Source: a virus
Lineage: Duplodnaviria > Heunggongvirae > Uroviricota > Caudoviricetes
Virus record (IMG/VR): IMGVR_UViG_2925939204_000002
Direction: 5' to 3' (one strand)
Length of the DNA: 31,902 nt
Shown: piece by piece, positions 1,157 through 26,946 of the stretch
How positions within the stretch are numbered: the first letter of the stretch is position 1
Layout of the letters: the number at the start of each line of letters is the position of its first letter
Program-made: the position numbers and the translations under genes
The notes under the pieces: model-generated
What the model was told of the DNA's origin: nothing
Seen by the model: only the letters and a program-made list of their open reading frames with translations
Databases searched by the model: none

Positions 1157-1540
1157 CTATTGATCAGGGCCGCACTTCTTCGTATATTCGGCCATGTTTA
1201 CCTGTCCTGGGTCTGAATACAGTTGCTTGTTAAATACAGAGTAAGTTACCCCTTTTGAGAAGAACCCCTTCGACTTCATCGACAATTCCATTTCAAAAGG
1301 TGCAAAACCAGCATACGCACCAAACGCATTTTTGGCGTTTACCTGCCCGCAGACGTAACCGACAACAGCACCATCAGCAGCTTCGTCTTTCTGAACAAAA
1401 CGTACATACCTGAATTTCGCGCTATCAGGATCGCGCATACTTGAAGCAACTTCTTTCTGCCCCAACTCAACCGCTTTATCAGCACCGGGCTTACATCCAA
1501 CAAGGCTAAACAGCGCAAGTACCATGATTAACTTTTTCAT
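1157..1540 (-). CDS. Putative lipoprotein of unknown function, 127 aa (possible prophage moron)
   Basis: Internal ATG at 1540-1538 of ORF 1157..1783 gives MKKLIMVLALFSLVGC: signal peptide plus lipobox LVGC; purine-rich tract upstream; codon usage more AT-rich than neighbouring phage genes. The longer 208-aa form overlaps ogr and is rejected. Confidence 0.6.
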   Translation of the reverse strand: MKKLIMVLALFSLVGCKPGADKAVELGQKEVASSMRDPDSAKFRYVRFVQKDEAADGAVVGYVCGQVNAKNAFGAYAGFAPFEMELSMKSKGFFSKGVTYSVFNKQLYSDPGQVNMAEYTKKCGPDQ

Positions 1541-1603
1541 ATCCCTACCTTTTAAGCACCACTGTGAAAGTTGAAAAATAATATCAGGGGTAACAGGTAT
1601 AAG

Positions 1604-1632
1604 AAACCCGCCATGTAGGCGGGTTATTTTTA
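1604..1632. terminator. Hairpin terminator at the 3' end of ogr, possibly bidirectional
   Basis: aacccgcc-atgtag-ggcgggtt stem-loop (1604-1625) followed by atttttac on plus strand and by a weaker U tract on minus strand; overlaps the ogr stop codon. Confidence 0.45.
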
Positions 1633-1872
1633 CAGTGCCAGCGATAGCTGATCTTCGCCGTGGTGACTTCGTGGAAAAGCTTCTTGTGGCACCATCGCGC
1701 CGGGCGCTGGCTGGGTCTGGTTTAATGAACCGTCTATTTCCGTCATGCTGGTGAAACAGTACCCGCATAACATGTTTTGACACTGGTGATAGCTGCGCCG
1801 TACAAGCAAACTCAGCTCAACGCTGGTTCTGGTTTTTGCTATAGCACGGCAGCGAGGACAGCGCATTGCCAT
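1630..1872 (-). CDS. ogr: Ogr/Delta-family zinc-finger late transcription activator
   Basis: 80-aa product with CPRC ... HQCQNMLC Cys4 arrangement as in P2 Ogr; strong RBS aaggagg 6 nt upstream of ATG at 1872; sits downstream of D as in P2. Confidence 0.8.
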   Translation of the reverse strand: MAMRCPRCRAIAKTRTSVELSLLVRRSYHQCQNMLCGYCFTSMTEIDGSLNQTQPAPGAMVPQEAFPRSHHGEDQLSLAL

Positions 1873-1920: not shown

Positions 1921-3039
1921 TTAAGACGTTGAATCGTCACTCTCCGCTGTCCAGTCGTCGATTTTTACTTCCAGTTCCAGCGACGTGGTAAACCCTCCCC
2001 CGCCAACATCGTGAACGCACCGTGTTATCGTCCAGCTTCCACTGTCGATCGTGGACTTAAACCCATAAACACTGGCTGGCTGTTCCGGGTACAAATCCGC
2101 GCGCCCACGCGCCAGGGTGATGCTGAACGTAGCCGCCCCGCGCTGCAACTCCCGCCACTTAGCCGCTGCGGCACGCTTTGCCGCCTTTTCCGTCTTGAAG
2201 GTTTTACGGATAACAAAAACGTTGCCTTCGGCCCCGGCCAGATAATCCCCTTCTTTTTTGCTTGATGCGGGTTCTTTCTTTTTGGCCTGGCTGGTTCGTC
2301 GCCTGCGGGTGGTTTTCTTCACGGTAGTGGATGGTTTCTTGCCAAAGTTGAGATCAAGCCAGTATGCAGTTACGCCCGTGTACGCGTCGCGGTCAGCTAC
2401 GTTAAACCGATGTTTATCACCGCTTGACCGGACTATCTCGATCACCGGCAGCGGCTTGCCGCTCTGCGTTACTCCCTTGCCCGGCGTGATAAACAGAAGC
2501 ATACCGTTTTTAATGGTTGCCACCGCGCCCAGCATTTCGGCCATGCGCGTTAAGAAGCTGATATCTGATTCACTCGTCTGATCGGCGTGATCTATCTCAA
2601 TCTTCGCCAGTTCTTCGCTGACGCCCGCACGCAGATCGTAACGGCTGGCAATGCTGGCAACCACATCCCCCACGGTAATATCGTGCCAGCTATATTCCCT
2701 CTTCACGTTAAAGGTATCGCGGAAATCTGCGCTTCTGGCACTGATCGTTAGCTGGTCAGGCGGGCCAGAGTGTCCGATCTCGTCAACCGTATACACGCCC
2801 TTAAAAACCAATGGATCATTATCCCAGCCCAGCGCCACCGATATCTTTGCGCCGCGTGATGGTAAGGCTACCTGCCCGTCTGCATCATCCAGAGTCAGAT
2901 CCAGCGTGTCCGCTTCAAAGCCCCGGTTATCTGTCAGGGAAAGGGAGATCAGCCGGTTATCCAGCGCCGTAAGCTGCTTACCTTCAATCTCAATACTGAA
3001 CGCCGGGCGCGGCGAATATCGGTTTTCTGTCGTGTCCAT
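1921..3039 (-). CDS. Phage late control / tail protein D (P2 gpD family)
   Basis: 372-aa product, N-terminus MDTTENRYSPRPAFSIEIEGKQLTALDNRL typical of gpD; position next to ogr. Confidence 0.85.
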   Translation of the reverse strand: MDTTENRYSPRPAFSIEIEGKQLTALDNRLISLSLTDNRGFEADTLDLTLDDADGQVALPSRGAKISVALGWDNDPLVFKGVYTVDEIGHSGPPDQLTISARSADFRDTFNVKREYSWHDITVGDVVASIASRYDLRAGVSEELAKIEIDHADQTSESDISFLTRMAEMLGAVATIKNGMLLFITPGKGVTQSGKPLPVIEIVRSSGDKHRFNVADRDAYTGVTAYWLDLNFGKKPSTTVKKTTRRRRTSQAKKKEPASSKKEGDYLAGAEGNVFVIRKTFKTEKAAKRAAAAKWRELQRGAATFSITLARGRADLYPEQPASVYGFKSTIDSGSWTITRCVHDVGGGGFTTSLELEVKIDDWTAESDDSTS

Positions 3040-3106
3040 ATCAACCCCTTCATCATGATGGGGTACATCGTCGCCACGCGCGCGCGCATGAACAACGCCC
3101 CGTCAT

Positions 3107-3124
3107 TGTTGCAGGTTGCTGACA
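3107..3124. promoter_or_regulatory. Candidate Ogr-binding dyad (TGT-N12-ACA) of a late promoter between D and FI
   Basis: tgt tgcaggttgctg aca is an exact TGT-N12-ACA; centre about 3115, roughly 55 bp from the expected FI start site and symmetrically placed relative to D. Confidence 0.45.
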
Positions 3125-3196
3125 ACCCTTATCCATCGCATCGGCCCGCCATTGCCGCAATGATATTCGCAGTCATTAAACTGGCGAGGCAAATAC

Positions 3197-4390
3197 ATGG
3201 CCACTAACTACCATCACGGTGTAACCGTCACGGAAACCACCGACCTTAGCACGATGATCACCGACATTGATTCGGCGGTGATCGGCGTTGTCTGCACCGC
3301 TGATGATGCGGACGAAACAGCGTTCCCGCTGGATACCCCTGTACTGATTACCCGCGTGGCTAACATGCTGGGCAAGGCAGGTAAAACCGGCACCCTGTTT
3401 ACCACCCTGAAAGCGATTTCAGACCAGACCAGCCCGCAAACCATTGTGATCCGCGTTGCTGATGCTGCAAATATCGAACCGCCAGAAGGCGGCACCGCAC
3501 AGACCCAGGATCAACTGGTTATTGGCGGCACCGATGCAAACGGGCGCTTTACCGGCATGTACGCGCTGCTGTCTGCCGAAATGCGCGTAGGTGTGCGCCC
3601 GCGTGTACTGGCTGTTCCAGGGCTTGATACGGAAGCGGTAGCCGCACAACTCGGCGTCATTGCCGAAAAGCTGCGCGCGTTTGCTTACGTGGCAGCGAAC
3701 GGTTGCAACACAATCGCCGAAGTGAAGGAATACCGCGAGCAATTCTCCCAGCGTGAAATGATGGTTATCTGGCCTAATTTCATCTGCTACGACACCAACG
3801 CCGGGGCTAATGCCACCGTGCCCGTGGGTGCCCATGCTGTTGGGATGCGAGCCAAAATCGACGCAACGCAGGGCTGGCATAAAACCATTTCCAACGTGCC
3901 CGTTAATAACGTGCTGGGGATGGATCGGGATATCTATTTCACGTTGCAGGGCACCGATACCGACGCCGACGAACTGAACGCAGCAGGCGTTACCACGCTG
4001 ATCAAGCAGGACGGCTACCGCATCTGGGGATCGCGTACCTGCGACGCGGAAACGTATATCTTCGAAAGCTATACCCGAACCGCGCAGATAGTTGCGGATA
4101 CCGTCGCCGAAGCCCATTTCGCCTATGTTGATAAACCGCTTACCCCGTCGCTGGTAAAGGACATTGTGGACGGCATCAATAAGAAGCTGACCTCATACGT
4201 GACGGCTGGCAAGCTGCTGGGCGCCCGCTGCTGGTATGACCCGGAACCGAATACCTCGGAAACCCTGCGCAATGGTCAACTGACCATTAAGTACAACTAC
4301 ACCCCTGTTCCACCGCTGGAAAATCTCAGCCTGGTACAGGAGTTCACCGACGAATATTTCGCTACGTTTTCCAGCGCAGTGAATAACTAA
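3197..4390 (+). CDS. Contractile tail sheath protein (P2 gpFI family)
   Basis: 397-aa product, size and N-terminus MATNYHHGVTVTETTDLS consistent with gpFI; followed by tube gene. Confidence 0.9.
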   Translation: MATNYHHGVTVTETTDLSTMITDIDSAVIGVVCTADDADETAFPLDTPVLITRVANMLGKAGKTGTLFTTLKAISDQTSPQTIVIRVADAANIEPPEGGTAQTQDQLVIGGTDANGRFTGMYALLSAEMRVGVRPRVLAVPGLDTEAVAAQLGVIAEKLRAFAYVAANGCNTIAEVKEYREQFSQREMMVIWPNFICYDTNAGANATVPVGAHAVGMRAKIDATQGWHKTISNVPVNNVLGMDRDIYFTLQGTDTDADELNAAGVTTLIKQDGYRIWGSRTCDAETYIFESYTRTAQIVADTVAEAHFAYVDKPLTPSLVKDIVDGINKKLTSYVTAGKLLGARCWYDPEPNTSETLRNGQLTIKYNYTPVPPLENLSLVQEFTDEYFATFSSAVNN

Positions 4391-4402
4391 CCGGGGGCGC
4401 TT

Positions 4403-4918
4403 ATGGCACTGCCTAAGAAACTCAAATATTTCAATATGTTCTTTGACGGGGATAACTACTTCGGCATGGTGCCGGAAATCACCCCCGCCAAACTCACCAA
4501 AAAAACCGAAGACTACCAGGCGGGTGGTATGCCAGGTTCGGTTGCGGTGGATCTTGGCTTCGACGCTGGCGCCCTGGATATGGATATCACGCTTGGCGGT
4601 CTGGATGCCGGATTGCTGAAAAAATGGGGCGTTACCACTGCGGACGGGATGCAAACACGTTTTGCTGGCTCCTATCAGGACGACGCAACCGGCGACGCTG
4701 TACCGTGCGAAATCCAGACGCGTGGCCGCTTCACTGAACTGGATCCCGGTTCGGCAAAAGTCGGGGATGACACTTCGCATAAGTACACCCTGAAAAACAC
4801 CTATTACAAGCTGACCATCAACGGCGAAGAGATTATCGAAGTTGATGTGCTCAACATGATCTACAAAGTTGCCGGTGTGGATGTGCTGGAAAAACACCGC
4901 GCTAACATCGGCCTATAA
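4403..4918 (+). CDS. Tail tube protein (P2 gpFII family)
   Basis: 171-aa product MALPKKLKYFNMFFDGDNYFG, size and position match gpFII. Confidence 0.9.
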   Translation: MALPKKLKYFNMFFDGDNYFGMVPEITPAKLTKKTEDYQAGGMPGSVAVDLGFDAGALDMDITLGGLDAGLLKKWGVTTADGMQTRFAGSYQDDATGDAVPCEIQTRGRFTELDPGSAKVGDDTSHKYTLKNTYYKLTINGEEIIEVDVLNMIYKVAGVDVLEKHRANIGL

Positions 4919-4932
4919 GGAAACCCGGCACC

Positions 4933-5268
4933 ATGAGCAAAACCAAAGAAAACACCGTTATTCTTACCGCCCCTATTACGCGCGGTAAGACCAAAATCAC
5001 CGAAGTGGCGATCACTTCCATGCTTAAACAGGCTGGATCACTGCGCGGCTTAAAAGCCTATGACGTGCTGACTTCCAACTATGACGCGCTGGTTATTCTG
5101 CTGCCCCGCGTTACCGCTCCGGCACTAACCGCCGATGAGATTGCCCGTATGGATACCTGGGATTTTTGCCAGCTAGCCAACGCGGTGGTTGATTTTTTGC
5201 AACCCTCTTCGGATCTGACCGCGACGGATACGGGCAACGAATCATCCGATGCCCCTGCGAACGCATAG
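4933..5268 (+). CDS. Tail assembly chaperone gpE (in-frame product)
   Basis: 111-aa ORF directly upstream of the tape measure gene; contains a slippery heptamer. Confidence 0.75.
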   Translation: MSKTKENTVILTAPITRGKTKITEVAITSMLKQAGSLRGLKAYDVLTSNYDALVILLPRVTAPALTADEIARMDTWDFCQLANAVVDFLQPSSDLTATDTGNESSDAPANA

Positions 5269-5393
5269 AAGACCTGATGGCAGATATCGCCGTCATATTC
5301 CACTGGCGGCCGGTAGAGATGGACGCCATGACGGTACAGGAAATACTGTTATGGCGTGATCAGGCGGCTGCGCGCAGTGGTGGAGATCACTAA
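4933..5393 (+). CDS. Tail assembly chaperone gpE+E' made by programmed -1 frameshift
   Basis: The -1 frame after the slippery site stays open to TAA at 5391-5393, immediately before the T start; expected from the conserved E/E' (lambda G/GT-like) arrangement. Confidence 0.6.
5193..5199 (+). promoter_or_regulatory. Slippery heptamer TTTTTTG for the gpE/E' -1 ribosomal frameshift
   Basis: T TTT TTG in the E reading frame at 5193-5199; the -1 frame is open from here to 5393. Confidence 0.55.
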
Positions 5394-8321
5394 ATGGCAG
5401 ACCGCAATTTAAATATCAGGGTGGCATTCAGCGCCCTGAATAATATGTCCCGCCCTGTCAACGCGGCGCGCCAGAGTGCCGCCGCGTTGGCGTCTCAAAT
5501 CAACCAGACTAAAACCAGCATTAAAGGGCTTGAGCGTCAGGCAACCAGCTTTGACCGCCTCACCGCAGCCAATAAAAAAACCACCGAACAACTGGCCCAG
5601 GCGAAAGAACAGGCCCGGCAAATGGCGGCGGCTTATGGCCCGTTACGCCAGCGCAGCGCCGAACAAGTTGCCGCCCTCAATCAGCAACGTGCAGCCATTC
5701 GCCAGTTAACCCAGCAGCAGAAAGGCGAGCAGACGCAGCTTAACCAGTTGCGGGCCAGCTTCTACAGCGAAGGCATTGCGATCAGCAGCGCCAGCCGGGC
5801 GACGGAACAGATCAACCAGCGCACCGCGCAATACAACCGCCAGCTTGCTGAACAGCAACGACGGCTTGACGCTGTTAACCAGGCGCAGGCCCGTTACAGC
5901 CGCGCCAAAGAAACCGGCGAAAAGATGATGAGCGGGGGAATGAAAACCGCCGCAGTAGGGGCGGCAACACTCGTACCTGTCGCCGCTGCGGTGAAATCCT
6001 ACAGCAGCCTCGAAGACGCGATGAAGGGCGTAGCCAAACAGGTAAATGGCTTACGTGACGACAGCGGCAACCGCACCCCGCAGTATGAAGAAATGCAGCG
6101 GGCGATCATGGATGCCAGCGAAAAGCTGCCAATGGCTAACGGTGCTGTTGACTATGCCGCCCTGGTCGAAGGCGGCGCGCGTATGGGCGTCGCAAACAGC
6201 GATGATCCCTGGCAAAAGCAAAAAGCCGATCTGCTGTCTTTTGCCAGCATGGCGGCAAAAGCTTCGGTAGCCTTTGAACTGCCCGCCGATCAGCTTTCTG
6301 AAAGCCTGGGGAAAATTGCCGGGCTGTATAAAATCCCCACCCAGAATATTGAACAGTTAGGCGACGCCATAAACTACCTGGACGATAACGCGAAGTCGAA
6401 AGGCTCCGATATTATCGACGTACTCCAGCGCGTTGGTGGGCTTGCCAGCCAACTGGATTACAAGCAAGCCGCCGCGCTAGGTTCCACCTTTCTGACGCTC
6501 GGCACCCCTGCCGAAGTTGCCGCCAGCGCCACCAATGCAATGGTGCGCGAACTCTCAATCGCTACGGTTCAGGGCAAAAACTTTATGCAGGGTCTGGACG
6601 CCCTCGGCCTCAGCGCCGAAAAAGTTCAGAAGAGCATGTCAGTGGACGCGATGGGCACAATCATTTCAGTGCTGGAAGCGTCCAAAAAACTGGCCCCGGA
6701 TCAGCAGGTAGCCAACCTTACCCAGATTTTTGGCAAAGAGTTCGGCGATGATGCGCAGAAACTTGCCAACAACCTGCCCGAACTACGCCGCCAGATAGAA
6801 CTGACGCAGGGCGCAGCCGCTAAAGGTTCCATGAATAGGGAGTCTGATATCAATAAAGCTTCCCTTTCTGCTCAATGGCAACTGACAAAAACCGGCGCGG
6901 TTAACGCATTCAGTTCAGCAGGTGAAACCCTTCGCGATCCGCTGATGGATATCATGCTTACCGTCAGTAAGGTGGTTGGCAGCGTCCGCCGCTGGGTGGA
7001 GGCAAACCCAGCGCTGGTTGGTTCAATCATGAAAGTCACCGCAGCCATAGGCGCTTTGCTGGTTGTCATGGGTGGCCTGATGCTGTCCATCGGCGCAGTA
7101 CTTGGCCCAATGGCACTTGTTCGCCTCAGCTTCACCTCGCTGGCCGGGGAAGGAGGAATAGCGCGTCTGACTGGCGGAGTAATGCGCCTGGGTGGTGCGT
7201 TCCAGTGGCTTGCTGGCTCGCCTATGCAGGCATTGTTAAGCGCCGGTCGCATGGTATTCGGCCCGCTTATCACGCTACTGGCTGGCATTTCTGCGCCCGT
7301 CTGGGGGCTGATTGCTCTCTTTGCTGCGGTAGCAGTGGCCGTAATTAAATTCTGGCAACCGATTAAGGCATTTTTCAGCGGCTTCTTTACCGGTCTGATG
7401 GCTGGCCTTCAACCAATAACGCAGTCGTTTAACGCCGTATTCGCACCACTGGCCCCGATTTTTAACAGTATCGGCAACGCGATCAGCGGCGTCTGGGAAT
7501 GGTTTACCAAACTACTGGAGCCGATCCAGTTTTCCAGTGAAGCGCTGGCATCCTGCACCAGTGCAGGGGAAACCTTCGGTAAGGTGGTTGGGGCCACAAT
7601 CAGCGCGCTGACGCTTCCCATTCAGGCCGTAGCCAAAGGGCTGGGCTGGATTCTGGAAAAGCTGGGCGCCATTCCCGACGCAGCGAAAGCAGCGCAGCAG
7701 GTTGCGCAGCAAATGACGCCGGAAGCGGTAAACAATCTGGCAGACCGGGTTAACGCCTTTTCCGGTGACGTGCAGGCAGTCGCGAAGGAAAGCAAAAAAG
7801 CCGAAGAGAAAAAGAAAACCGATGAGCAGAAGAAACAGGACAACCTGATTAACTCGCTCAAAGGCCCGGCCAACATCGTGCCGAAGATGAGCAACAGCCT
7901 GGACAAGATCGCCACCAATACCACGGAGAAGAAAGACGGCCCCGGCGAAATTGTCTTCAAGAATAAGCAGCCCTATATCCCGATCCGTGGCGGATATTCG
8001 GAACCGCTTAAGCAGGCGCAGCGCCAGCTACCATCCCTTACCGATTGGGTGACGCAGCAGGCCGGATCGCTGATCGCTTCCGTTACGCCTTGGCAGGTTG
8101 AGAAGCCCGCCGCACGGATGCCTGTTTCGGCGTCTCCGTCTGCGGCTTCCGTCGCTGCGCTGATGCCTGCTCCGGGTGGCGATGTATATAACCTTAACTT
8201 CGACTTTAGCGGCCAGAAACTGGATGAAGAAACCATTATCAGGCGCGTGCGCGAAGAACTTGCGTTAGCGAAGCAACAGGCCGACCGGCGCAAGCGCTCC
8301 CAACTGACCGATCACGTCTAA
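5394..8321 (+). CDS. Tail tape measure protein (P2 gpT family)
   Basis: 975-aa product with coiled-coil N-terminal third, hydrophobic Gly/Ala-rich central segments and charged C-terminus; follows E/E'. Confidence 0.9.
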   Translation: MADRNLNIRVAFSALNNMSRPVNAARQSAAALASQINQTKTSIKGLERQATSFDRLTAANKKTTEQLAQAKEQARQMAAAYGPLRQRSAEQVAALNQQRAAIRQLTQQQKGEQTQLNQLRASFYSEGIAISSASRATEQINQRTAQYNRQLAEQQRRLDAVNQAQARYSRAKETGEKMMSGGMKTAAVGAATLVPVAAAVKSYSSLEDAMKGVAKQVNGLRDDSGNRTPQYEEMQRAIMDASEKLPMANGAVDYAALVEGGARMGVANSDDPWQKQKADLLSFASMAAKASVAFELPADQLSESLGKIAGLYKIPTQNIEQLGDAINYLDDNAKSKGSDIIDVLQRVGGLASQLDYKQAAALGSTFLTLGTPAEVAASATNAMVRELSIATVQGKNFMQGLDALGLSAEKVQKSMSVDAMGTIISVLEASKKLAPDQQVANLTQIFGKEFGDDAQKLANNLPELRRQIELTQGAAAKGSMNRESDINKASLSAQWQLTKTGAVNAFSSAGETLRDPLMDIMLTVSKVVGSVRRWVEANPALVGSIMKVTAAIGALLVVMGGLMLSIGAVLGPMALVRLSFTSLAGEGGIARLTGGVMRLGGAFQWLAGSPMQALLSAGRMVFGPLITLLAGISAPVWGLIALFAAVAVAVIKFWQPIKAFFSGFFTGLMAGLQPITQSFNAVFAPLAPIFNSIGNAISGVWEWFTKLLEPIQFSSEALASCTSAGETFGKVVGATISALTLPIQAVAKGLGWILEKLGAIPDAAKAAQQVAQQMTPEAVNNLADRVNAFSGDVQAVAKESKKAEEKKKTDEQKKQDNLINSLKGPANIVPKMSNSLDKIATNTTEKKDGPGEIVFKNKQPYIPIRGGYSEPLKQAQRQLPSLTDWVTQQAGSLIASVTPWQVEKPAARMPVSASPSAASVAALMPAPGGDVYNLNFDFSGQKLDEETIIRRVREELALAKQQADRRKRSQLTDHV

Positions 8322-8330
8322 GGCAATATC

Positions 8331-8780
8331 ATGATGATGATTCTGGGGATGTTCCCCTTTTCACTGCAAACCACACCTTACCAGAGTGCGAATAAAACCA
8401 ACTCCTGGCGGCACGTCAAAAACGATCGCGTGGGGAAATCCCCGCGCTATCAGTTCATCGGCGCAGATGAAGAACCGTTCGTACTCAGCGGCACGCTGTA
8501 CCCCGAAATAAGCGGCGGTGATGTGTCGCTTGTCATGCTGGAAACTATGGCTTTTTCCGGGCGCCCGTGGCCCCTGATAGAAGGCACGGGCAGGATCTAC
8601 GGCATGTATGTAATTGAGCAGATCACGCAAAACCGGACGGAGTTTTTTAAGGACGGGAAGGCAAAGAAAATTGATTTCACGCTCAACCTGAAACGGGTAA
8701 GCGAGGACATACGGGAAAAGCTGGCTGAAACCACTACCGACGATCTCTTCTCTCTGGTGAAAACCAACCTTTCGATATAA
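8331..8780 (+). CDS. Tail protein U (P2 gpU family)
   Basis: 149-aa product immediately after T; N-terminus MMMILGMFPF. Confidence 0.8.
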   Translation: MMMILGMFPFSLQTTPYQSANKTNSWRHVKNDRVGKSPRYQFIGADEEPFVLSGTLYPEISGGDVSLVMLETMAFSGRPWPLIEGTGRIYGMYVIEQITQNRTEFFKDGKAKKIDFTLNLKRVSEDIREKLAETTTDDLFSLVKTNLSI

Positions 8781-8784
8781 GAAA

Positions 8785-8811
8785 AGCGGGCCATTGCCCG
8801 CTTCGTCTTCC
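8785..8811 (+). terminator. Candidate terminator of the tail operon
   Basis: agcgggc-catt-gcccgct hairpin starting 5 nt after the U stop, followed by a U/C-rich tract. Confidence 0.45.
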
Positions 8812-8832
8812 GTAATACACAACCATAACTGA

Positions 8833-8889
8833 CCGTGCTACAGCACCGTTAAAAGTGACCGTACTCGATACACACGGCCAGCACGGTTA
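8833..8889. repeat. Copy A of a ~57-bp structured intergenic repeat
   Basis: 42 of 48 core positions identical to 15461-15508, plus cgtgct upstream; contains 12-bp palindrome gtgct-ac-agcac and conserved tcgatacacacggccagcacggtta; abuts the invertase stop. Confidence 0.5.
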
Positions 8890-9468
8890 TAACCGGCCAT
8901 GCGTGCCGGAATTCTTATCTCTGGTCGCTGGGAATTTTTTGTAAAGCGTAGATATCCCAACATCATAAATTATGGCAACCCTCCGGCGCGATTCCCCTGC
9001 CGCTATTAACCTACCCGCCTGCGCCCATTGTTCTGGTGTTAGTTTTGGACGTCTACCGCCGATCCTTCCCTGCGCGCGAGCGGCCACCAGTCCTGCACGC
9101 GTACGCTCGACAATCAATTCTCTCTCCATCTCTGCCAGTGCTCCCATAACATGAAAAAAGAAACGCCCCATTGGTGTTGAGGTATCAATACTGTCCGTCA
9201 GGCTGCGGAAGTTCACGGAACGTTGCTTTAGTTCCTCCACCAGAATGACCAAGTTCCGCATACTCCGCCCAAGACGATCCAGCTTCCAGACAACAAGCGT
9301 ATCTTCTGGAGAAAGGCGCTTTAGTAATTTTTTAAGCCCTGGCCTTTCCGCTGTTCTCCCGCTCATTTTATCTTCAAAAATTAGCTCACATCCTGACCGC
9401 TCAAGCGCATCACGTTGCAAAGCCGTGTTCTGGTCATTTGTTGATACGCGCACATATCCAATAAGCAT
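8887..9468 (-). CDS. Site-specific DNA invertase, Hin/Gin/Pin/Cin-family serine recombinase
   Basis: 193-aa product MLIGYVRVSTNDQNT...VVWKLDRLGRSMRNL...SPMGRFFFHVMGALAEMERELI, near-identical in motif content to Gin/Pin; catalytic Ser in the YVRVST context; C-terminal HTH. Confidence 0.9.
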   Translation of the reverse strand: MLIGYVRVSTNDQNTALQRDALERSGCELIFEDKMSGRTAERPGLKKLLKRLSPEDTLVVWKLDRLGRSMRNLVILVEELKQRSVNFRSLTDSIDTSTPMGRFFFHVMGALAEMERELIVERTRAGLVAARAQGRIGGRRPKLTPEQWAQAGRLIAAGESRRRVAIIYDVGISTLYKKFPATRDKNSGTHGRL

Positions 9469-9522
9469 GGTTTTTCATTCCTTTAAAACGATAAATCATG
9501 CCATTCGGCTAATAATTATGCA

Positions 9523-9548
9523 TTTTCAAAAACGTTCGTTTCGAACTG
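9523..9548. promoter_or_regulatory. Candidate invertase crossover site (hix/gix-like) immediately upstream of the invertase gene
   Basis: ttttcaaaaacg tt cgtttcgaactg: A-rich half-sites aaacg/cgttt around a 2-bp centre, resembling the GAAAACC-NN-GGTTTT core of hix/gix; positioned as gixR/hixR are relative to their recombinase genes. Confidence 0.3.
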
Positions 9549-9641
9549 GGGGGGGAGTGACGGGCTGTGAAGGGCGATGTTGCTCTGATGGAAAATTCCG
9601 GGTCTTGCTGATGCGTGTCGATACAGCAAAACCCGTATGGC

Positions 9642-9875
9642 TTACTCCTCTGGATAATGAGTAGGCGCATTATACTGACTGACGTACTCGTTAAGCTCCG
9701 GCGGGTATGTCACTTTTGCTGTATCTCGCTCTACGTTGAATGTATCCGCTCCCCAGATAACACACTCCCTCAAAAATGCCTCCACCTCTGGCGAGACTTC
9801 AACCGCATCATCAGGTCGCTCTTGTTCAGAAACATAAAAACCAACGGTCGTTGGGCTGAAATAGATATTCTCCAT
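9642..9875 (-). CDS. Tail fibre assembly (Tfa) chaperone-like protein, short form, probably truncated
   Basis: 77-aa product MENIYFSPTTVGFYVSEQERPDDAVEVSPEVEAFL resembles the conserved N-terminal domain of Tfa proteins, but the usual C-terminal domain is absent; lies between tail fibre H and the invertase. Confidence 0.5.
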   Translation of the reverse strand: MENIYFSPTTVGFYVSEQERPDDAVEVSPEVEAFLRECVIWGADTFNVERDTAKVTYPPELNEYVSQYNAPTHYPEE

Positions 9876-9877
9876 AT

Positions 9878-11134
9878 TTAGTATCCTATTGCTTCAAAAT
9901 GCAGTGTCGGTGTTTCGCCGAGATTGGGTGTCGTATACGCCACAGTGAATCGCGTTCTTGATACGTCAGTGCCAGAATCAGTATCGCGATGCGTTGCCAG
10001 TGATTTTCCGGCCATTGTTGCCTGGGTCGAATAGCTGTAACTCGCTAGTGTTGCCAGCGTTGCTATTTGTGCATTTGGGAATTGTCTGGGGAAATTAACC
10101 CTGTAGTAATGGGTGTAGTACGTCACCCCACCGAGCACCTGCGCGCTGAAGTTACCAACTGGTGTCAGTGTCACAGTGCCAGCCTGTCGAATCATACCAT
10201 TTGGGAGAATATCCCAGGCAGTTTGTCCGTTTCGCGACATACCAAATGCGGACATGTCCGGGAGTTGATTATTACCGGTTCCCACGTCCCTTTTTGCCGC
10301 TTCTCCCAATTGAAGGTTTTGTAGAAAAACAGAAACGTTTTCTATGTCTGAACCATTTGCCGATTTATCCATCTTTCCAGCGAGTGAATTTGTTACGGTG
10401 GTAGCAAAGTTAGGATCATTACCCAAAGCCGCAGCAAGTTCATTCAGCGTATCCAGCGCTTCAGGCGAAGAGCCAACCAAAGCAGCAATAGCAGCCTGAA
10501 CGAAAGCTGTATTTGCAATTTGAGTAGAACTATCTTTGCCTTCCGCCGTTGGCGCAGTCGGCCTGCCAGTAAGAGCGGGACTTTCTTTTGGTGCGTATTG
10601 TTTATGCGGATCAGCCGCAGCTACATGCGCTGCCATTTTCTGATCAACATAGCTTTTCACCTGGATGATCTGATCATCAACATACTGTCGGGTTGCCAGA
10701 ACTACCGAAGGGTCAATTTTCAGCGTTACGGCAGCGGTGCTGCTGACAATCAGGATCATGCGTACAACCTGTACGCGCCCGCTTCCCTCCTGTAACTGCG
10801 GCTTATACGTTTCCGCACAGTTGGCTACGGCAATCATATCGCCGTCTTTATCGAATAAACCGATTTCACGGATCCACCACCCGCCCTCGTCTTCAGGTAT
10901 CACCTGCTCGGCAATAATCTGGTTGGCGTTATTCGGGTCAATGCTCAGACTATTAAGCGGCTTGCGGCGCAGCTCATGAACCAGCGCCGTTTGTGCCGGG
11001 TTCGGCGTCGGCAACACGCCGTTACCATCGCCTACAGCCATCTGGGTGATTTCAACCTGCGCACCCAATGCCGTGGCATTTGCCAGTTTCGCCGCGCCCA
11101 CATTGGTTAGCACGGCATAATATTTAGTCGCCAC
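9878..11134 (-). CDS. Tail fibre protein (P2 gpH family), about 418 aa from GTG start
   Basis: N-terminal region ATKYYAVLTNVGAAKLANATALGAQVEITQMAVGDGNG...SGRVQVVRMILIVSS matches the conserved gpH N-terminal domain; GTG at 11134-11132 overlaps the gpI stop. Confidence 0.85.
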   Translation of the reverse strand: MATKYYAVLTNVGAAKLANATALGAQVEITQMAVGDGNGVLPTPNPAQTALVHELRRKPLNSLSIDPNNANQIIAEQVIPEDEGGWWIREIGLFDKDGDMIAVANCAETYKPQLQEGSGRVQVVRMILIVSSTAAVTLKIDPSVVLATRQYVDDQIIQVKSYVDQKMAAHVAAADPHKQYAPKESPALTGRPTAPTAEGKDSSTQIANTAFVQAAIAALVGSSPEALDTLNELAAALGNDPNFATTVTNSLAGKMDKSANGSDIENVSVFLQNLQLGEAAKRDVGTGNNQLPDMSAFGMSRNGQTAWDILPNGMIRQAGTVTLTPVGNFSAQVLGGVTYYTHYYRVNFPRQFPNAQIATLATLASYSYSTQATMAGKSLATHRDTDSGTDVSRTRFTVAYTTPNLGETPTLHFEAIGY

Positions 11135-11738
11135 TTGCGATCTCCACGGTGTCAATTAAATGGATTGCCGCCCCGGTGTAATCATCACCGCCCACGGCTA
11201 TGGTTTCAGGAAAATACGGGTACACGGTTAGCGTATCGCCGGAATAACTGCCCGCGCCGATATACAGATCGCCGGTTGTTTGCAGGTGAAGAGACATTCC
11301 CAGCATATGACGGCTGCACGGCTTCACATCGGCGATCAGGCGTTCAAGTTCCTGATAGGTTTCTTCACTAATGCCCTGGTCTTCCACGCCAATATCCAGC
11401 GTGAAGGTGCCCGGTGCGGTGTCGATGTTCCACCACTCGTTAACCCGGATGAAGAAGCCGAACGGCTCCACAACCCGGCGCATGGCGCCCGTTGTACCCT
11501 TGTACTTATGCAGGTAAAACGCATCGGCCACTGCCTTTCGTTTTGTGTTTATCGGCCAGGCCTCATCCCAGCGATCAACGGAGAAGGCCCACGCCAGATA
11601 GGGCAACAGATCAGCCCGACACGTCCACGGGTTCCACAACTGGCGCAGCGGCACGGGCACTTCACCCAACGACGCACAGACGCGCGCGGCGACGCGCTCC
11701 ATTCGGCTGGCGCTGGGTGGTAACAGGTCATTACTCAT
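11124..11738 (-). CDS. Baseplate/tail protein I (P2 gpI family)
   Basis: MSNDLLPPSASRMERVAARV N-terminus; ATG at 11738 overlaps the J stop (ATGAGTAA arrangement). Confidence 0.85.
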   Translation of the reverse strand: MSNDLLPPSASRMERVAARVCASLGEVPVPLRQLWNPWTCRADLLPYLAWAFSVDRWDEAWPINTKRKAVADAFYLHKYKGTTGAMRRVVEPFGFFIRVNEWWNIDTAPGTFTLDIGVEDQGISEETYQELERLIADVKPCSRHMLGMSLHLQTTGDLYIGAGSYSGDTLTVYPYFPETIAVGGDDYTGAAIHLIDTVEIASGD

Positions 11739-12642
11739 CGTAACCACCCACCGTTATGGTGTATTCGGTGCAGTGCGATGCCTGGTAGTCACTCAGCACA
11801 ATATCCGCAACAGGCCGCGCCAGTTCCACGCGCTGGACGCCTTCGACGTGCAGGGCGGCGTAGATAGCTGAAAGACGGATATCGCGCCCTAAGCGATTCT
11901 GCGCGGCAATATACGCCTGTAACTGCTGTTCCGATGCCTGCCGGACGGGTTCAGCTTCCGGCCCCGGATAGATGTAAAGCGTTGCATCAATCTGATACGG
12001 CACGATCTCCGCAGACTGCACCGTTACCCTGTCGGCCACCGGGCGCACTTCTTCATCGTTCAGGGCAGCAGCGACCACGGAAAGCAGATCATCGCTGGCC
12101 GTTCCGTCACCTTCGCGCGACAGCACCGAAATGGTGACGCAGGCAGGCGTAGGACTCACCGCCGAAATATCAGCTACGCGCCCGTCTGCTGAACGCCCCC
12201 AAAATTCATACGCCGCAGTTGGCCCGGCCACGCTCAGACCTTCAAAAGCCTGCTGGGTACGCGTGCGTAAATCTGGGTCTGACTCCATCACGGCTTCAAT
12301 TGGCGGTGTAACGCTGTCGTCTTCTTCCTGAATGGTCAGACGTTCAACGTTGAAATTGACCGCCAGATTATCCAGATCGCTATCCGTGGAATAAGCCAGC
12401 ATCACCGCGCGGGCTGCTTCATTCACCCGCTGGCGCAACAGCAATTCGCGATAGCAATTCTCTTCCAGCAGCATGGTGATCGGCTCCGATTCAAGCTCAA
12501 GCGTGCGGGCGATCTCTTCCTGCTCGTCTTCCGGGTACATCGCAATAAATGCCGCCTTGCGCTGCGCGAAAAGCGTTTCGAAGTCCAGCGGTTCAACCAC
12601 CACGGGCGGCGGTAGCTGCGATAAATCGATCGTGCCGCTCAT
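11731..12642 (-). CDS. Baseplate assembly protein J (P2 gpJ family)
   Basis: 303-aa product, size and position between W and I. Confidence 0.9.
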   Translation of the reverse strand: MSGTIDLSQLPPPVVVEPLDFETLFAQRKAAFIAMYPEDEQEEIARTLELESEPITMLLEENCYRELLLRQRVNEAARAVMLAYSTDSDLDNLAVNFNVERLTIQEEDDSVTPPIEAVMESDPDLRTRTQQAFEGLSVAGPTAAYEFWGRSADGRVADISAVSPTPACVTISVLSREGDGTASDDLLSVVAAALNDEEVRPVADRVTVQSAEIVPYQIDATLYIYPGPEAEPVRQASEQQLQAYIAAQNRLGRDIRLSAIYAALHVEGVQRVELARPVADIVLSDYQASHCTEYTITVGGYDE

Positions 12643-13001
12643 GCCTGGCCCCTCAATGTAATATCAGCGTTAAATGGCGTCTGATTGTCGGTGCGATTGG
12701 CCTGGATAGTGGCAACCAGCCGACCGGCACCCGGCGCGCTCAGGGTGATACTGGTCAGAGAGATCCGCGGTTCCCATAAATACAGGGCGCTGTAGATGGC
12801 AGACATAACGCGCAGCTTCGTTATGGCGTTATCGACCGGCTGATCTATCAGGTTGAAAAGCTGCGAACCGTAAGCGCGGCGCATTACACGGGAACCGATC
12901 GGCGTTAACAGAATATCGCCGATAGACTGCGCTATATGCTCGTTGTCGGTGATGGCATGGCCTGAACTGGCATTCATGCCGCTGTAACGGACTGTACTCA
13001 T
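12639..13001 (-). CDS. Baseplate protein W (gp25-like)
   Basis: 120-aa product between V and J, translationally coupled. Confidence 0.85.
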   Translation of the reverse strand: MSTVRYSGMNASSGHAITDNEHIAQSIGDILLTPIGSRVMRRAYGSQLFNLIDQPVDNAITKLRVMSAIYSALYLWEPRISLTSITLSAPGAGRLVATIQANRTDNQTPFNADITLRGQA

Positions 13002-13627
13002 ACCGGGCCACCTGTATTACTACCACCGGACTGGACGCCGCTATGTTTGTGAGAATGGACAACGACACCATTAGACGAAAGCGATCCGCCTGAATGGGTA
13101 ATATTGCCCTTCATTTCCCCGCCCTTTTGCACTTCCAGCGTGGCGGTGATCAGCTTGTTGGTGCAGACCACTTCCGGCGTGTCCAGGGTAACGCGCGTAT
13201 CTGCCTTGACCGTTACCACCGGCACGGTGGCGGTAATGGATTCCGACGCGGTGACGCTTGCCGTTTTTACCCCGCTGACAACCAGCGCGCTGGCCTCCGG
13301 GTCATATGAAATACGGGCGCCATCCGGGTGCAGGATCACGCAGGTGGTAGCGCCAGCATCTGGCGGCGGTGCGTCTTTGCTGTAAAGGCTTCCGGCAATG
13401 AATGCCGTCTCCAGCTCACCGCAGGGGCACAAAATATAAACCTGTTCGCCCACTGTCGGCGCCCACCACGTCACGGCTTCACCGGCGCGCGGCACTGCCC
13501 AGCGGATCCAGTCGGTTTTGTTCTCGCCGGTTTCGACGCGTGCAAGATACTTTTCCGTATCCACTTCCAGCACGGTGCCAATGCGGGCGAGATTGCAGAT
13601 AAGGCGATAGAGTTCGTTTAAATTCAT
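12998..13627 (-). CDS. Baseplate spike/assembly protein V (P2 gpV family)
   Basis: 209-aa product MNLNELYRLICNLARIGTV; first gene after the S-V intergenic region. Confidence 0.85.
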   Translation of the reverse strand: MNLNELYRLICNLARIGTVLEVDTEKYLARVETGENKTDWIRWAVPRAGEAVTWWAPTVGEQVYILCPCGELETAFIAGSLYSKDAPPPDAGATTCVILHPDGARISYDPEASALVVSGVKTASVTASESITATVPVVTVKADTRVTLDTPEVVCTNKLITATLEVQKGGEMKGNITHSGGSLSSNGVVVHSHKHSGVQSGGSNTGGPV

Positions 13628-23413: not shown

Positions 23414-24526
23414 ATGGACGTTTATGTTTATGCTGATGAATCTGGACATTCAGGTCGCAATATTTTTGACGAGAGATCACCGACATACTTTCAGGGGGCG
23501 ATAATCTCTCATGGTGACGTTGATCCTATCATTAACGAAGTTGTCCAGCGGCACTGCAAGGCTTTAGGCGTTCCGCGTCTTCACTCAAATGAACACCAAG
23601 AGCATGTTGTTTCAGTAATTTGCTCAGATCTTCTTGATGCACTTGAAAATACCTCTTGGGAATTTTCACTCTGCGTTATTCACAAACCTTATCTCGCACC
23701 AACCAAGTTTGTTGATCTGTTTTTTGATAGTGCTGATAATCCTGGCGTCCCGGTCTTGTGGTACAACACCGAATTATTTAGACATGCTATGTGCTTAGGT
23801 ATGGCAGATATCTTGTCCGATGAAGATAACAAGGCTTTTTGGGATGGTTTCCTGAGCGACGACATGCCAAAAATGCTTCAAGTTGCGGAAATTGCACTTT
23901 CAAGAATTGACCGCATACTAGATCCGCGAATGAAAGAAGTTATGACTGATGGTTTAACTTACGCGATCAGCCACCCTGACGAATTCACCTTAATTTGTAC
24001 CCATGGGAAAAGCGCCTACAAAGGCCAAACGCCTAATATGGTTGCTTTTTCTAGTCTGATGGGGGCTACACATTCTTTCTGTAAAAAGCATTCCTCTTCC
24101 GTAAAAGAATTGATCCATGACAGAAGCGACGAGTTTCGCGGGACGATGAGAGAATATCACCGCATTTTTCATAAAATCGATCATGTAGAGGACGATTTGG
24201 GGGGCCCAATTCTTTTTGAGGAGGCTCAATTCGATTTAGGTAAATTCGATCTTCGAAGTTCAGAAAGTCATCCAGCGCTGCAAGCTGTAGATGTTTTTTT
24301 GTGGATGCTGCAAAGAGACTTGATTACTGATGAAGGAAAAAAAGCTCTAGAACGACTAAAAAAACATCTCAATGATTTCGTGATATCTCCTTCCATGTCT
24401 CAGTTGATTGTAAGGGCACGTACATATCAACTTAACAGTAAACCTCTTTCATCTGAACAGTTCAAAGCGGGAAGAAAATTTTCTGCTCAGTTAGAAGCTA
24501 AACGACAGAAGCGTTTGAGAAGATAA
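23414..24526 (+). CDS. Hypothetical protein, 370 aa, AT-rich moron in the cos-proximal hotspot (P2 old/tin position); candidate defence gene
   Basis: ATG at 23414 with gaagga RBS; AT-rich codon usage; N-terminal YVYADESGHSG motif (reminiscent of DUF3800-type proteins, unverified); no P-loop seen; flanked by terminators. Confidence 0.7.
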   Translation: MDVYVYADESGHSGRNIFDERSPTYFQGAIISHGDVDPIINEVVQRHCKALGVPRLHSNEHQEHVVSVICSDLLDALENTSWEFSLCVIHKPYLAPTKFVDLFFDSADNPGVPVLWYNTELFRHAMCLGMADILSDEDNKAFWDGFLSDDMPKMLQVAEIALSRIDRILDPRMKEVMTDGLTYAISHPDEFTLICTHGKSAYKGQTPNMVAFSSLMGATHSFCKKHSSSVKELIHDRSDEFRGTMREYHRIFHKIDHVEDDLGGPILFEEAQFDLGKFDLRSSESHPALQAVDVFLWMLQRDLITDEGKKALERLKKHLNDFVISPSMSQLIVRARTYQLNSKPLSSEQFKAGRKFSAQLEAKRQKRLRR

Positions 24527-24542
24527 TTAAAACATACCCATA

Positions 24543-24570
24543 AATGGCGCCTCATGGCGCCATTGCTTTT
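24543..24570. terminator. Bidirectional hairpin terminator between the convergent 370-aa gene and gene A
   Basis: aatggcgcc-tcat-ggcgccatt perfect 9-bp stem followed by gctttt. Confidence 0.5.
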
Positions 24571-24576
24571 GGCTAA

Positions 24577-26946
24577 TTATATCTCATTTAATAAATGGCC
24601 CTTAAACGCTGCCTTCATCCTGTTCACAAGGTCGCTTGTCTTTTTCTTCGCTGCCATCACCTGTGACGGCAGCTTATCCAGCCCGGATGCGGCGCGGTTG
24701 CGCGATACCAACCGCCCGTCCTGCACGGTCATAACAAGATCACCGCACGCCACTGACGCACCGGCCATCATCGATCTGACCATTCCGGCGCTTGCATCAA
24801 TCCCACGTAGCGCCAGCAGTTCACTGATCTGCTGCTCTTTGACTGATAGCCCTGCTTCCTCTTCCCATTCCGGTGGCCGCGTTTTCCGCTTGGCGCGTAC
24901 ATCGTCACTTAATCGCTGCGCCAGTTCCCGCTTTTCTTGCCGTGAAAGAGCATCAAAATTCACCGTCTCGCCCACTTCGTGATCGGCATGTTCAAGACCG
25001 TCAGCACCTGTTGCGGGATCCCGCGTACAGTTATTGACAGAACTCCGAGGGGCGGCGCTGCCGCCTGAAAAACCAACGTCAACGGCCACACCGTCAGCGC
25101 TCTGGCGCTTCGGCACGATTTTGTATTTAGTGGTGCGGGTGAAGATCAAAGAGTCATTGCCCGTAATCGGGCAATAGATACCGGTGATTCGCTGGACGTT
25201 ATCGCCGTAGGCGTTGCCGTTTTCAGTGGTTTCATAATTCAGACGGATGCGCAGCTTATCGCGCTCAACCAACGGGCCACCCTGGGCTAATACGTAGTTA
25301 TCCCATTCGCCACCGTTAGCGGCCTGCCGGGCGGTTTCCAGTTCAGGGTGTAACACCAGTTCGCGATCGCCCAGGCGGCGAAGTTCGCGATATACCGTGA
25401 CCGGTGCACCGCCGATCTGCTGAAACTGACGAATAGCCCAGCGCGATGCCCACGCGCTAACGCGGAGTGACATTTCTTTCAGGTCTTCCCCGGTTTCGTC
25501 GTCCTTCTCACCATCCAGCGCGAAGCCGTCGATATTCTTCGAAATGTATTTCGCTATGTAGCCGGTTGCGCTGCCGTGGGCATCATCGATCGGCACAACC
25601 TGAAAGCGGTTTTCCTGCGCTCCCGGTTCGTTGCCGTCTTCTTTCAGGGCATATTTACGGAAGATTTCGCGCGCCTGCTCGACGCATTCCGGGCGCATAA
25701 AAAGAAGTAAATGCCAGTGTGGCGTTGCATCGTGGTGCGGTTCGACCACGCGAAAACCAAAGACGCGGATCCCTTTTCTCTTCCACGCTGCGCGGGTTCT
25801 CGCCCAGACTTTGCAAAGATATTGCTGCGTCTCGCGCGGCGATGCGCCACAGTATTTATTATTGCGGCGCCCGTTATGCTGCATGGAGTGGTAACGGGAA
25901 GGTGCTGTCAGCGTGTAGAAGTCACCGGCCAGCCCTTCCAGCTTCGCCAGATCTTCAAATCCGCGCATTCTCGTCATGAGTTCGCGGCGACGGTTGGCCG
26001 GATTGGCAACACTACCGGCGACTTTATCGATCAGTGAAATGCGTTCGCCCGTGTCCTGGTCTTCCAGTTCCATAGCCTTAAGGTATTCACGGTTAGCCTT
26101 TTTTTGGGCCAACCATTCCGTAAGGCACGGGGCGCTACTGTATGGGAAAGATTTTTTCTGGACGTATCCCGCAGCGATCATCAAATGCTCACGCCACCGG
26201 GCATGGATACGGCGCAGGCGGTTTAACCACCACTGCGGTGACTCAAGGCGAAGAACCGCGCGTAACGCGTCCTCCGCTTCCAGTTCTTCATTGCAATACG
26301 CCGTCCAGCCGGGGATCGGAGTTTTCAGATGCACCGCCAGCGACGCAATACGGCCATAGCCAGAAAGCGCCGCGAACTCAGGATCTCCGGTGCGTGCCAA
26401 TTGGTGATCGGACTCGCGTATAAACTCGCTCGTAAAGATATCGGCAAGCGTATAAGCCAGTCTTTTTAACTCTTTCTTCCCTGCCCAGAGCATACGGAAC
26501 AGCTGATCGCGGATTGGCAGCAGAATGCCGGGCATCACAGTGTCAGGCTGGTAAACACTGTTCACACTATCAATTCGCGTTAATACGTGGCGCTCAAAGG
26601 TATTAACCAGCCAGTGATCTGCCGCTTTGCGGTCTTTCGCGTCCAGTGCATCCAGCTTCGCGGCAAAGTGGCGGCGGATATACTGCGGAAGTGAAGCCAG
26701 ACGGCGACGCAGCAGCTTGCTGCGCTCCGGCTTTTCGTCTTCCGCTACCAGTTCACTGAACGCAATATGCTTACGCGTGCCGTCCGGCGTGAGATAGTCG
26801 AAACCATCCAGCCCCGGCGCTACATCAACGCCAATAGGCTGGTATGGTTTGTTTCCCCCATAAGCGTAAGGGATAGCATTGTCAGTGCTACCCGGATACG
26901 GTGGAGGTGGAGAAGGGGCGCGACGGCCACGGGTTTCCGTGGTCAT
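24577..26946 (-). CDS. Rolling-circle replication initiator A (P2 gpA family, HUH endonuclease)
   Basis: 789-aa product with PHWHLLLF (HUH motif) and TGYIAKYISK (catalytic Tyr region). Confidence 0.9.
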   Translation of the reverse strand: MTTETRGRRAPSPPPPYPGSTDNAIPYAYGGNKPYQPIGVDVAPGLDGFDYLTPDGTRKHIAFSELVAEDEKPERSKLLRRRLASLPQYIRRHFAAKLDALDAKDRKAADHWLVNTFERHVLTRIDSVNSVYQPDTVMPGILLPIRDQLFRMLWAGKKELKRLAYTLADIFTSEFIRESDHQLARTGDPEFAALSGYGRIASLAVHLKTPIPGWTAYCNEELEAEDALRAVLRLESPQWWLNRLRRIHARWREHLMIAAGYVQKKSFPYSSAPCLTEWLAQKKANREYLKAMELEDQDTGERISLIDKVAGSVANPANRRRELMTRMRGFEDLAKLEGLAGDFYTLTAPSRYHSMQHNGRRNNKYCGASPRETQQYLCKVWARTRAAWKRKGIRVFGFRVVEPHHDATPHWHLLLFMRPECVEQAREIFRKYALKEDGNEPGAQENRFQVVPIDDAHGSATGYIAKYISKNIDGFALDGEKDDETGEDLKEMSLRVSAWASRWAIRQFQQIGGAPVTVYRELRRLGDRELVLHPELETARQAANGGEWDNYVLAQGGPLVERDKLRIRLNYETTENGNAYGDNVQRITGIYCPITGNDSLIFTRTTKYKIVPKRQSADGVAVDVGFSGGSAAPRSSVNNCTRDPATGADGLEHADHEVGETVNFDALSRQEKRELAQRLSDDVRAKRKTRPPEWEEEAGLSVKEQQISELLALRGIDASAGMVRSMMAGASVACGDLVMTVQDGRLVSRNRAASGLDKLPSQVMAAKKKTSDLVNRMKAAFKGHLLNEI

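Follow-up and report, generated by a model that had tools for sequence, protein, structure and literature searches.

Introduction

Inversions of tail-fibre genes lying beside 'phage tail protein I' and tail-fibre-assembly (Tfa) genes are well documented (PMC9881135). The hallmark of such switches in Mu (G segment), P1 (C segment) and e14 (P segment) is a pair of alternative fibre tips in opposite orientation, each with its own assembly gene. In Mu, whose segment of about 3 kb carries Sv-U and S'v-U', the crossover site falls within the fibre gene, where the constant part meets the variable part; e14, a lambdoid remnant, has the two sets stfP/tfaP and tfaE/stfE. The Hin invertase of Salmonella, from the same enzyme family, flips a promoter within an H segment of about 1 kb that includes hin itself, with the outcome that one gene is ON or OFF. 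Here we analyse a related locus, comprising an invertase gene, the tail-fibre gene H and a short open reading frame (ORF), orf77, in a 31,902-nucleotide (nt) stretch of viral DNA (IMG/VR record IMGVR_UViG_2925939204_000002; "the window" below). The hallmark pair of alternatives is absent from this locus, and we consider it probable that it is a Din-family (Pin/Gin/Cin/Hin-type) tail-fibre inversion module with one fibre-tip cassette, not two.

By its enzyme, sites and layout the system belongs to the Din family and is closest to Pin/e14, with which it shares an AA/TT crossover core; the core in Mu is GA/TC. Where e14 has two tip/Tfa sets, the window has one set and a 25-codon relic, and the element that hosts it is a P2-like myovirus. 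As in Mu, a crossover site of the window marks the constant/variable boundary within the fibre gene, and its proximal site, promoter and 5' coding region are colinear with gixR-gin; in contrast, the segment is only 776 bp long with one set, and its enhancer is a candidate where Mu has the sis enhancer. In size the segment is similar to that of Hin, and by analogy the outcome would resemble Hin ON/OFF logic, although inversion in the window would flip the 3' end of a structural gene, with the invertase outside the segment. The two-cassette siblings 0H23/0H26 and 730V1 have an identical invertase protein, constant part of H and outer half-sites. They keep a second variable tip and a full Tfa gene in the opposite orientation, and 0H23/0H26 are seen both ways, whereas the window has lost the alternative.

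Results

A Din-family invertase downstream of the tail-fibre gene

The ORF at 8887-9468 (minus strand) encodes a Din-family serine DNA invertase of 193 amino acids (aa). It contains the Pfam domains Resolvase (PF00239, E 7e-50) and HTH_7 (PF02796, E 4e-13), matches phrog_125 'DNA invertase' (E 1e-91), and is 85% identical to PinE of e14 and 74% identical to Mu Gin (structures 3UJ3 and 4M6F). The catalytic Ser9 lies in an RVSTNDQ motif and aligns with S9 of Gin. These matches bear out the initial annotation, which had called a Gin/Hin/Pin-type invertase here. In the alignment with Gin, the window enzyme also has the Q..RL motif and the basic residues of helix B, which make contact with Fis and the enhancer (PMC3798978). 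The protein is WP_021567694.1, and the same accession is found in 730V1, 0H23 and 0H26.

Two inverted crossover sites flank the fibre-tip cassette

Din-family crossover sites are built of two imperfectly inverted 12-bp half-sites around a 2-bp core. The invertase-proximal crossover site, siteR, occupies 26 bp at 9523-9548 and reads TTTTCAAAAACG TT CGTTTCGAACTG on the plus strand. Its outer half, which faces the invertase, is good and its inner half is degenerate. By sequence alone siteR is unremarkable: its half-site-matrix score of 12.3 falls within the range of shuffle maxima (mean 10.7, highest 13.4). No other place in the window matches it with 3 or fewer mismatches. We assign its role not from the score but because it is colinear with Mu gixR relative to the invertase ATG, because its distance of 55-80 bp upstream of that ATG is the distance of pixR in K-12, and because homology to relatives breaks at the core dinucleotide, running until 9537 in E. 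coli SZQ1 and until 9541 in 730V1. The outer half, CGTTTTTGAAAA, matches pixR (CGTTTATGAAAA) at 11/12 positions. The proposal that this 26-bp sequence is placed like gixR relative to the invertase start is therefore upheld.

The partner site, siteL, lies inside H at 10301-10326 and reads TTCTCCCAATTG AA GGTTTTGTAGAA on the plus strand; on the gene strand it is TTCTACAAAACC TT CAATTGGGAGAA and encodes ...LQNLQLGE.... It is the top score in a scan of the window with a matrix that itself includes the siteL outer half, and it matches pixL at 20/26 positions. At this end of the cassette, SZQ1 homology stops at 10313 and phi458 homology begins at 10317. The position and outer half of siteL are the same as those of the site used in the 0H23/0H26 inversion described below. 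Given that the core of siteL is AA and that of siteR is TT on the plus strand, the two sites, about 780 bp apart, are mutually inverted, the arrangement needed for inversion. The possibility that the locus has no partner site, raised earlier, can thus be set aside. Judged against the published table of Din-family sites (PMC3241671), both sites belong to this family and are closest to pixL and pixR.

A candidate sigma-70-like promoter for the invertase at 9515-9544 (minus strand; TCGAAA, an 18-nt spacer and CATAAT) overlaps siteR; it has 9/12 consensus matches, and one such match in the region is the chance level. The gin and pin promoters overlap their proximal crossover sites, and the candidate is similarly placed.

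A single fibre tip and a short partner gene lie between the cores

H (9878-11134, minus strand) is full-length in the window, encoding 418 aa, with the segment in the ON orientation. Its constant N-terminal part, Hc (10313-11134, minus strand; 274 aa), begins with a GTG at 11134, in agreement with the RefSeq annotation, and carries PF12571 Phage_tail_fib on residues 1-150. The variable C-terminal part, Hv (9878-10312, minus strand; 145 aa), lies within the cassette and ends the fibre in a Gp53-like_C tip (PF21882, residues 310-418); copies of Hv that are 88-96% identical occur in phi458 and at the related loci L010, L011, L255 and L256. Directly after H, in the position of gene G, is orf77 (9642-9875, minus strand), which encodes 77 aa. 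The cassette between the two cores (9537-10312, 776 bp) consists of the siteL inner half, Hv, orf77, a spacer with a Tfa relic, and the siteR inner half. Among the window ORFs there is no second, opposite-orientation fibre tip and no full second Tfa between H and the invertase. Here we agree with the initial annotation: a single Hv and orf77 are all that the segment holds.

The spacer (9549-9641, 93 bp) contains most of the relic and about 40 bp of other DNA. It is conserved along with the cassette in L010, L011, L257 and L260-L264, and a 74% identical copy lies downstream of a different Tfa in L158. At its edge, directly inside siteR, is a run of eight G residues (9548-9555); other copies of the cassette read GGAGGGGG here, and in the predicted OFF orientation the run would fall in the H frame, 4 codons ahead of the stop.

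The same prophage inverts a two-cassette segment in E. coli

E. coli AR_0128 and AR_0118 carry the window prophage in their chromosomes, with 100% identity over the 2.6 kb around the locus. E. coli 0H23 and 0H26 carry this prophage with a two-cassette segment and differ from one another by a precise inversion: L012 2481-4337 equals L013 7837-5981 inverted (0H23/0H26), with flanks that are 100% identical and inner half-sites swapped at the core. Hc in the window is identical to both at 822/822 nt, and the interval from the siteR core through the entire invertase gene is identical to theirs at 754/756 nt (99.7%). Since the DNA outside the cassette is 99.7-100% identical to that of 0H23/0H26, the window enzyme and the outer half-sites are very probably active.

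The cassette itself is found in both orientations in nature. L011 has a 96%-identical allele in the opposite orientation, with the junctions Hc-TTCTCGAAAACC TT CGTTTCGAACTG and TTCTCTTAATCG TT CAATTGGGAGGA, as predicted for exchange at the cores; its H is shortened to 210 aa, with the C-terminus ...ENLRFELEGE. L263 has the prophage of L011 (flanks 99.96% identical) with the cassette ON. At both loci (L011 4440-4575 and L263 3340-3420) the invertase gene has been lost except for about 10 C-terminal codons fused to the site half TTCTCTTAATCG. Finding both orientations without an invertase suggests either an invertase acting in trans or exchange of cassettes.

Several other loci show related arrangements. 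SZQ1 (L003, NZ_CP173996, 1667-4187) has another version of this prophage with one cassette, independent of that in the window; its H is 483 aa long, the stop codon of its 138-aa Tfa lies directly against the siteR core, and its two inner half-sites are very degenerate. The single cassette of the window recurs at L264/L266 (3001-3997) and L262 (3001-4568) beside two other Din-family invertases, one 66% identical to the window enzyme and the other 186 aa long, with an unrelated 140-aa ORF between it and the cassette. Because the same cassette sits beside different invertases, pairing of this cassette with an invertase is recurrent. At L010 (Enterobacter kobei CP043511, 4246-7592), in a non-P2 phage, the cassette takes the form of a 250-aa and 77-aa gene pair on one strand; a second pair of 251 aa and 77 aa lies on the other strand, downstream of a 469-aa gene, and Din-like sites are found at the cassette borders. 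The region may be a multi-cassette inversion region.

A relic of a lost Tfa gene marks a deletion in the cassette ancestor

At 9587-9664 (plus strand) we found the relic of a second, oppositely oriented Tfa gene, consisting of its last 25 codons and stop (DGKFRVLLMRVDTAKPVWLTPLDNE). Its sequence (DGKFRVLLMRVDTAKPVW...) corresponds to the C-terminal end (...EWKKYRVLLMRVDTAKPVW...) of the Tfa found with this cassette where two cassettes are present; the intact 136-aa Tfa proteins of L255 and phi458 end in ...SEWKKYRVLLMRVDTAKPVWPVNPQDI, and DNA homology with phi458 reaches 9592. The Hv-orf77 cassette is one of two alternatives in phi458, an e14-like phage, in a P1-like plasmid and in canonical-order P2-like prophage sequence (strain SCPM-O-B-12142; CP144928). 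In the segments of phi458, SCPM-O-B-12142 and the P1-like plasmid, it abuts the 136-aa Tfa tail to tail.

At least seven other backbones, some with an invertase and some without, share the deletion junction, the relic and the siteR inner half (CAGTTCGAAACG AA). Across seven backbones, mean identity in 60-bp windows drops from 93% and 99% on the inner side of the two cores to 43% and 37% on the outer side. In exact searches with the siteR inner half, a 21-mer had no match in genome_contigs or viral_contigs, and a 15-mer had 120 matches in each of two collections, nearly all random, with only L158 related.

The initial annotation had proposed that the segment collapsed through deletion between sites. 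That idea is correct to the extent that a two-set ancestor lost one set by deletion, as the inverted 25-codon relic in the window attests. The deletion did not occur at this locus, however; because its junction is common to many backbones, it dates from a single event in an ancestor of the cassette, which in its collapsed form then spread as one unit. In the history that we propose, the cassette would have lost its partner by deletion in some ancestor and would then have passed between phages, P2-like ones and others, through recombination at both cores; the imported single cassette here most likely replaced a two-cassette segment like that of the siblings. Such a replacement is the simplest history, given that the window is nearly identical to its two-cassette siblings outside the cores.

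The DNA of the relic can also fold into a hairpin at 9600-9634 (minus strand), with an 11-bp stem followed by UUUU directly after the orf77 stop (predicted RNA fold -25.1 kcal/mol, z = -2.6). It arises from DNA that coded for the Tfa motif, and the stem is kept in L158 with one pair changed on both sides. The hairpin may serve as the terminator of the H-orf77 transcript, which would explain why the relic has been retained.

Possible inversion of the single-cassette segment

The invertase, the candidate promoter, any intragenic enhancer and the outer half-sites are the same as those of the inverting siblings, and from this we infer that the window segment is able to flip; whether flipping takes place at this locus is, in our judgement, close to an even call. 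With one cassette instead of two between the sites, any flipping would switch the fibre off. The predicted product is a truncated H of 281 aa (ending ...FLQNLRFELGGE) with the tip unexpressed and no alternative made, so that the segment would act as a fibre ON/OFF toggle and not as an A/B host-range switch. The junctions expected in the OFF state are 5'-GTTTTTCTACAAAACCTTCGTTTCGAACTGGGG-3' next to Hc and 5'-CTTCTCCCAATTGAACGTTTTTGAAAATGC-3' next to the invertase (in short form, GTTTTTCTACAAAACCTTCGTTTCGAACTGG and CTCCCAATTGAACGTTTTTGAAAATGC).

Several observations weigh against inversion here. The inner half-sites are degenerate, with 6/12 and 5/12 matches to a hix-type half-site, and that of siteR is without the outer TTC. 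No OFF copy of the window prophage was found among 5426 complete E. coli genomes searched by megablast with the locus inverted in silico (0/5426); only two genomes carry the combination, and both are ON. What this search did bring up were the two-cassette settings in which the cassette occurs. All of the invertase-linked single-cassette loci that we have seen (AR_0118, AR_0128, L264 and L266; 4/4) are likewise ON, and we see no evident benefit of the OFF state to the phage. L011 and L263 differ at 30/787 nt within the cassette despite their near-identical flanks, and so this pair documents exchange at the sites, not a plain flip in place. Finally, in a motif scan for the Fis-bound enhancer, which in this family normally lies in the 5' portion of the invertase gene, there was no pair of Fis sites with 48-bp spacing, even in Mu gin, which shows that the scan is too crude to decide on the enhancer; it did return one Fis-like match at +78 that is kept in all four invertases. 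A protein search with the predicted OFF-state H C-terminus was uninformative, returning only short Hc fragments and none ending RFELGGE.

Taken together, these points could mean that the cassette is fixed ON, that its degenerate inner halves prevent synapsis or cleavage, and that the invertase is a leftover, maybe acting in trans on other invertible prophage segments of the same cell, with host range fixed, as the initial annotation had suggested. The siteR full-site score within the shuffle range and the cost of an OFF state to the phage fit this account, as does the stability of the same cassette in the invertase-less P2-like phages L257, L258, L260, L261 and L265. We regard it as a real contender but a doubtful one. 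The cores match, the good outer halves do not differ from those in a sibling that switches, and the invertase ORF is intact and identical to the active one. A poor half is tolerated elsewhere in the family, since hixR functions with one very poor, equally poor half-site (PMC3241671). The siteL inner half, CAATTGGGAGAA, is native to two-cassette segments, where it lies beside the invertase in L255 and L256 and beside Hc in phi458. Moreover, the cassette with these inner halves occurs the opposite way round in L011 and has entered many backbones by recombination precisely at the cores. Cassettes of both orientations carry the derived deletion junction, and therefore at least one recombination at these sites took place after the collapse. 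The earlier description of the segment as locked fits poorly with an inverted partner site and with a cassette found both ways in nature (L011, L263).

Possible exchange of cassettes between phages

The Din sites might instead act mainly as docking points at which co-resident phages exchange receptor-binding cassettes, with no inversion in place; the swap would be made by an invertase, acting in cis or from elsewhere in trans, or by recombination through short homology at the conserved site, which codes for NL(G/Q)LGE. The contrast of 93-99% identity inside the cores with about 40% outside them, in seven backbones that include invertase-less phages, speaks for exchange. So do L011 and L263, with a 96%-identical cassette in opposite orientations between nearly identical flanks, and the window itself, which differs from 0H23 and 730V1 between the cores only. 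Against this, Fis-dependent invertases are topologically restricted to intramolecular inverted sites, and a route through RecA or a phage recombinase acting on the conserved site sequence is equally possible, the mechanisms being indistinguishable here. As the principal explanation of the locus, we consider exchange unlikely. It is nevertheless compatible with a single-cassette inversion module and adds to that reading rather than excluding it.

orf77 encodes a complete protein

The initial annotation had taken the 77-aa ORF directly downstream of H, with its motifs IYFSPTTVGFY and DAVEVSPEVEAFL, for a truncated tail-fibre-assembly gene. The ORF, its position and both motifs are as described, but orf77 is a complete protein of a conserved family, as judged from its relatives. 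This comes near to what the initial annotation had named as refuting its view, a complete functional chaperone kept at this length in related phages, although the chaperone role of orf77 is putative. A protein search returned 34 homologues, mostly of 77-80 aa, in Escherichia, Citrobacter, Enterobacter and Phytobacter; they are conserved over the full length, with identities down to 57-58%. Against a 75%-identical homologue, the ratio of nonsynonymous to synonymous substitution rates (dN/dS) is 0.10, with dS saturated. The AlphaFold model is a compact alpha/beta domain with a mean predicted local distance difference test (pLDDT) score of 92. In canonical P2-like phages that have no invertase, orf77 is the sole gene between H, with its Gp53-like_C tip, and the FI sheath gene. 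Exact copies of the protein are indexed in 145 blocks of the collection, and orf77 is always downstream of a Gp53-like_C tip, in invertible and non-invertible contexts alike.

The resemblance to Tfa proteins is confined to the N-terminus. Like lambda Tfa, Mu U (TfaMu) and P2 G, orf77 lies directly downstream of the fibre gene and has the short N-terminal motif common to some Tfa families: residues 1-31 match phrog_188 (E 8e-5), and there is a weak match in BFVD to LIMEzero Tfa over 31 columns. In contrast, those proteins are about 135-200 aa long and share a conserved C-terminal helical region (...W..YR..L.RVD...P..WP; PMC9608196), and this motif is absent from orf77. No Pfam family matches orf77, and Foldseek found no significant match among solved structures in the PDB. 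From position and co-inheritance, orf77 is probably a distinct short partner, or dedicated assembly factor, of the Gp53-like fibre tip. One homologue, P0028 (78 aa), ends in ...YPDEPDIDWPEKPTK, which resembles the extreme C-terminal PDI.WP..P motif of canonical Tfa, a hint at a possible ancient origin of orf77 from a Tfa by internal deletion.

That orf77 is instead a Tfa truncated by deletion at this very locus, leaving a fibre without its proper chaperone and a decaying module, is very improbable: although it shares just some 30 N-terminal residues with Tfa families, its length, dN/dS of 0.10, confident fold and place in invertase-less phages all argue otherwise, as does a deletion junction common to many backbones.

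Prophage context and neighbouring genes

The P2-like prophage in the window appears to be complete. Its Pfam set includes capsid, scaffold, terminase, portal, gpA, Dam methylase and integrase, together with R, S, V, W, J, I, H, sheath, tube, tape measure, U and D. The minus-strand genes run V-W-J-I-H-orf77-invertase, and the FI-FII-E-T-U block on the plus strand is convergent with the invertase. This FI-U block (3197-8780, plus strand) is inverted relative to the P2 order, as D (1921-3039, minus strand) and V through H (9878-13627, minus strand) lie on the other strand.

We considered whether the invertase had inverted the FI-U block, as the initial annotation had raised, and rejected the idea for want of support. 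Neither border (3040-3196 and 8781-8886) has Din-like sites above background, and no inverted repeats between the borders exceed those in shuffles. The same layout is common to close relatives and to the diverged, 71-77%-identical L011/L263 prophage; L255, L257 and L005 have the canonical order.

Three unannotated ORFs lie at positions where P2-like phages carry cargo: a 370-aa DUF3800 protein (23414-24526, plus strand), a 142-aa ORF (24554-24982, plus strand) and a 208-aa ORF (1157-1783, minus strand) beside the host fieF gene. A PADLOC scan of these ORFs for defence systems returned no match.

Discussion

Invertible tail-fibre segments are a textbook case of programmed host-range variation, and this locus shows what becomes of such a segment once an alternative has gone. 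Both sites are still in place, as is the recombination machinery, and the prophage may therefore toggle between infective and fibre-less states. A broader proposal, which we hold only tentatively, joins the two activities weighed above: the one-cassette segment would be a working on/off phase switch for the fibre, giving fibre-less particles or a truncated H with another role, and the Din sites would be portable junctions through which the tip, its mini-chaperone and the terminator relic are swapped between unrelated phages, including those that have no invertase.

The known mechanism of inversion is unchanged by these findings; what the locus offers is a reduced form of a well-known host-range switch. 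Three points seem to us worth keeping: the partner site that had been missed, the reclassification of orf77, which is currently annotated as 'hypothetical' and could easily be taken for a truncated Tfa, and the mobile cassette with its sharp borders. The last provides a case, resolved to the base pair, of a receptor-binding module that moves between backbones exactly at 2-bp crossover cores, and it bears on how host specificity is traded among P2-like, P1-like and lambdoid phages.

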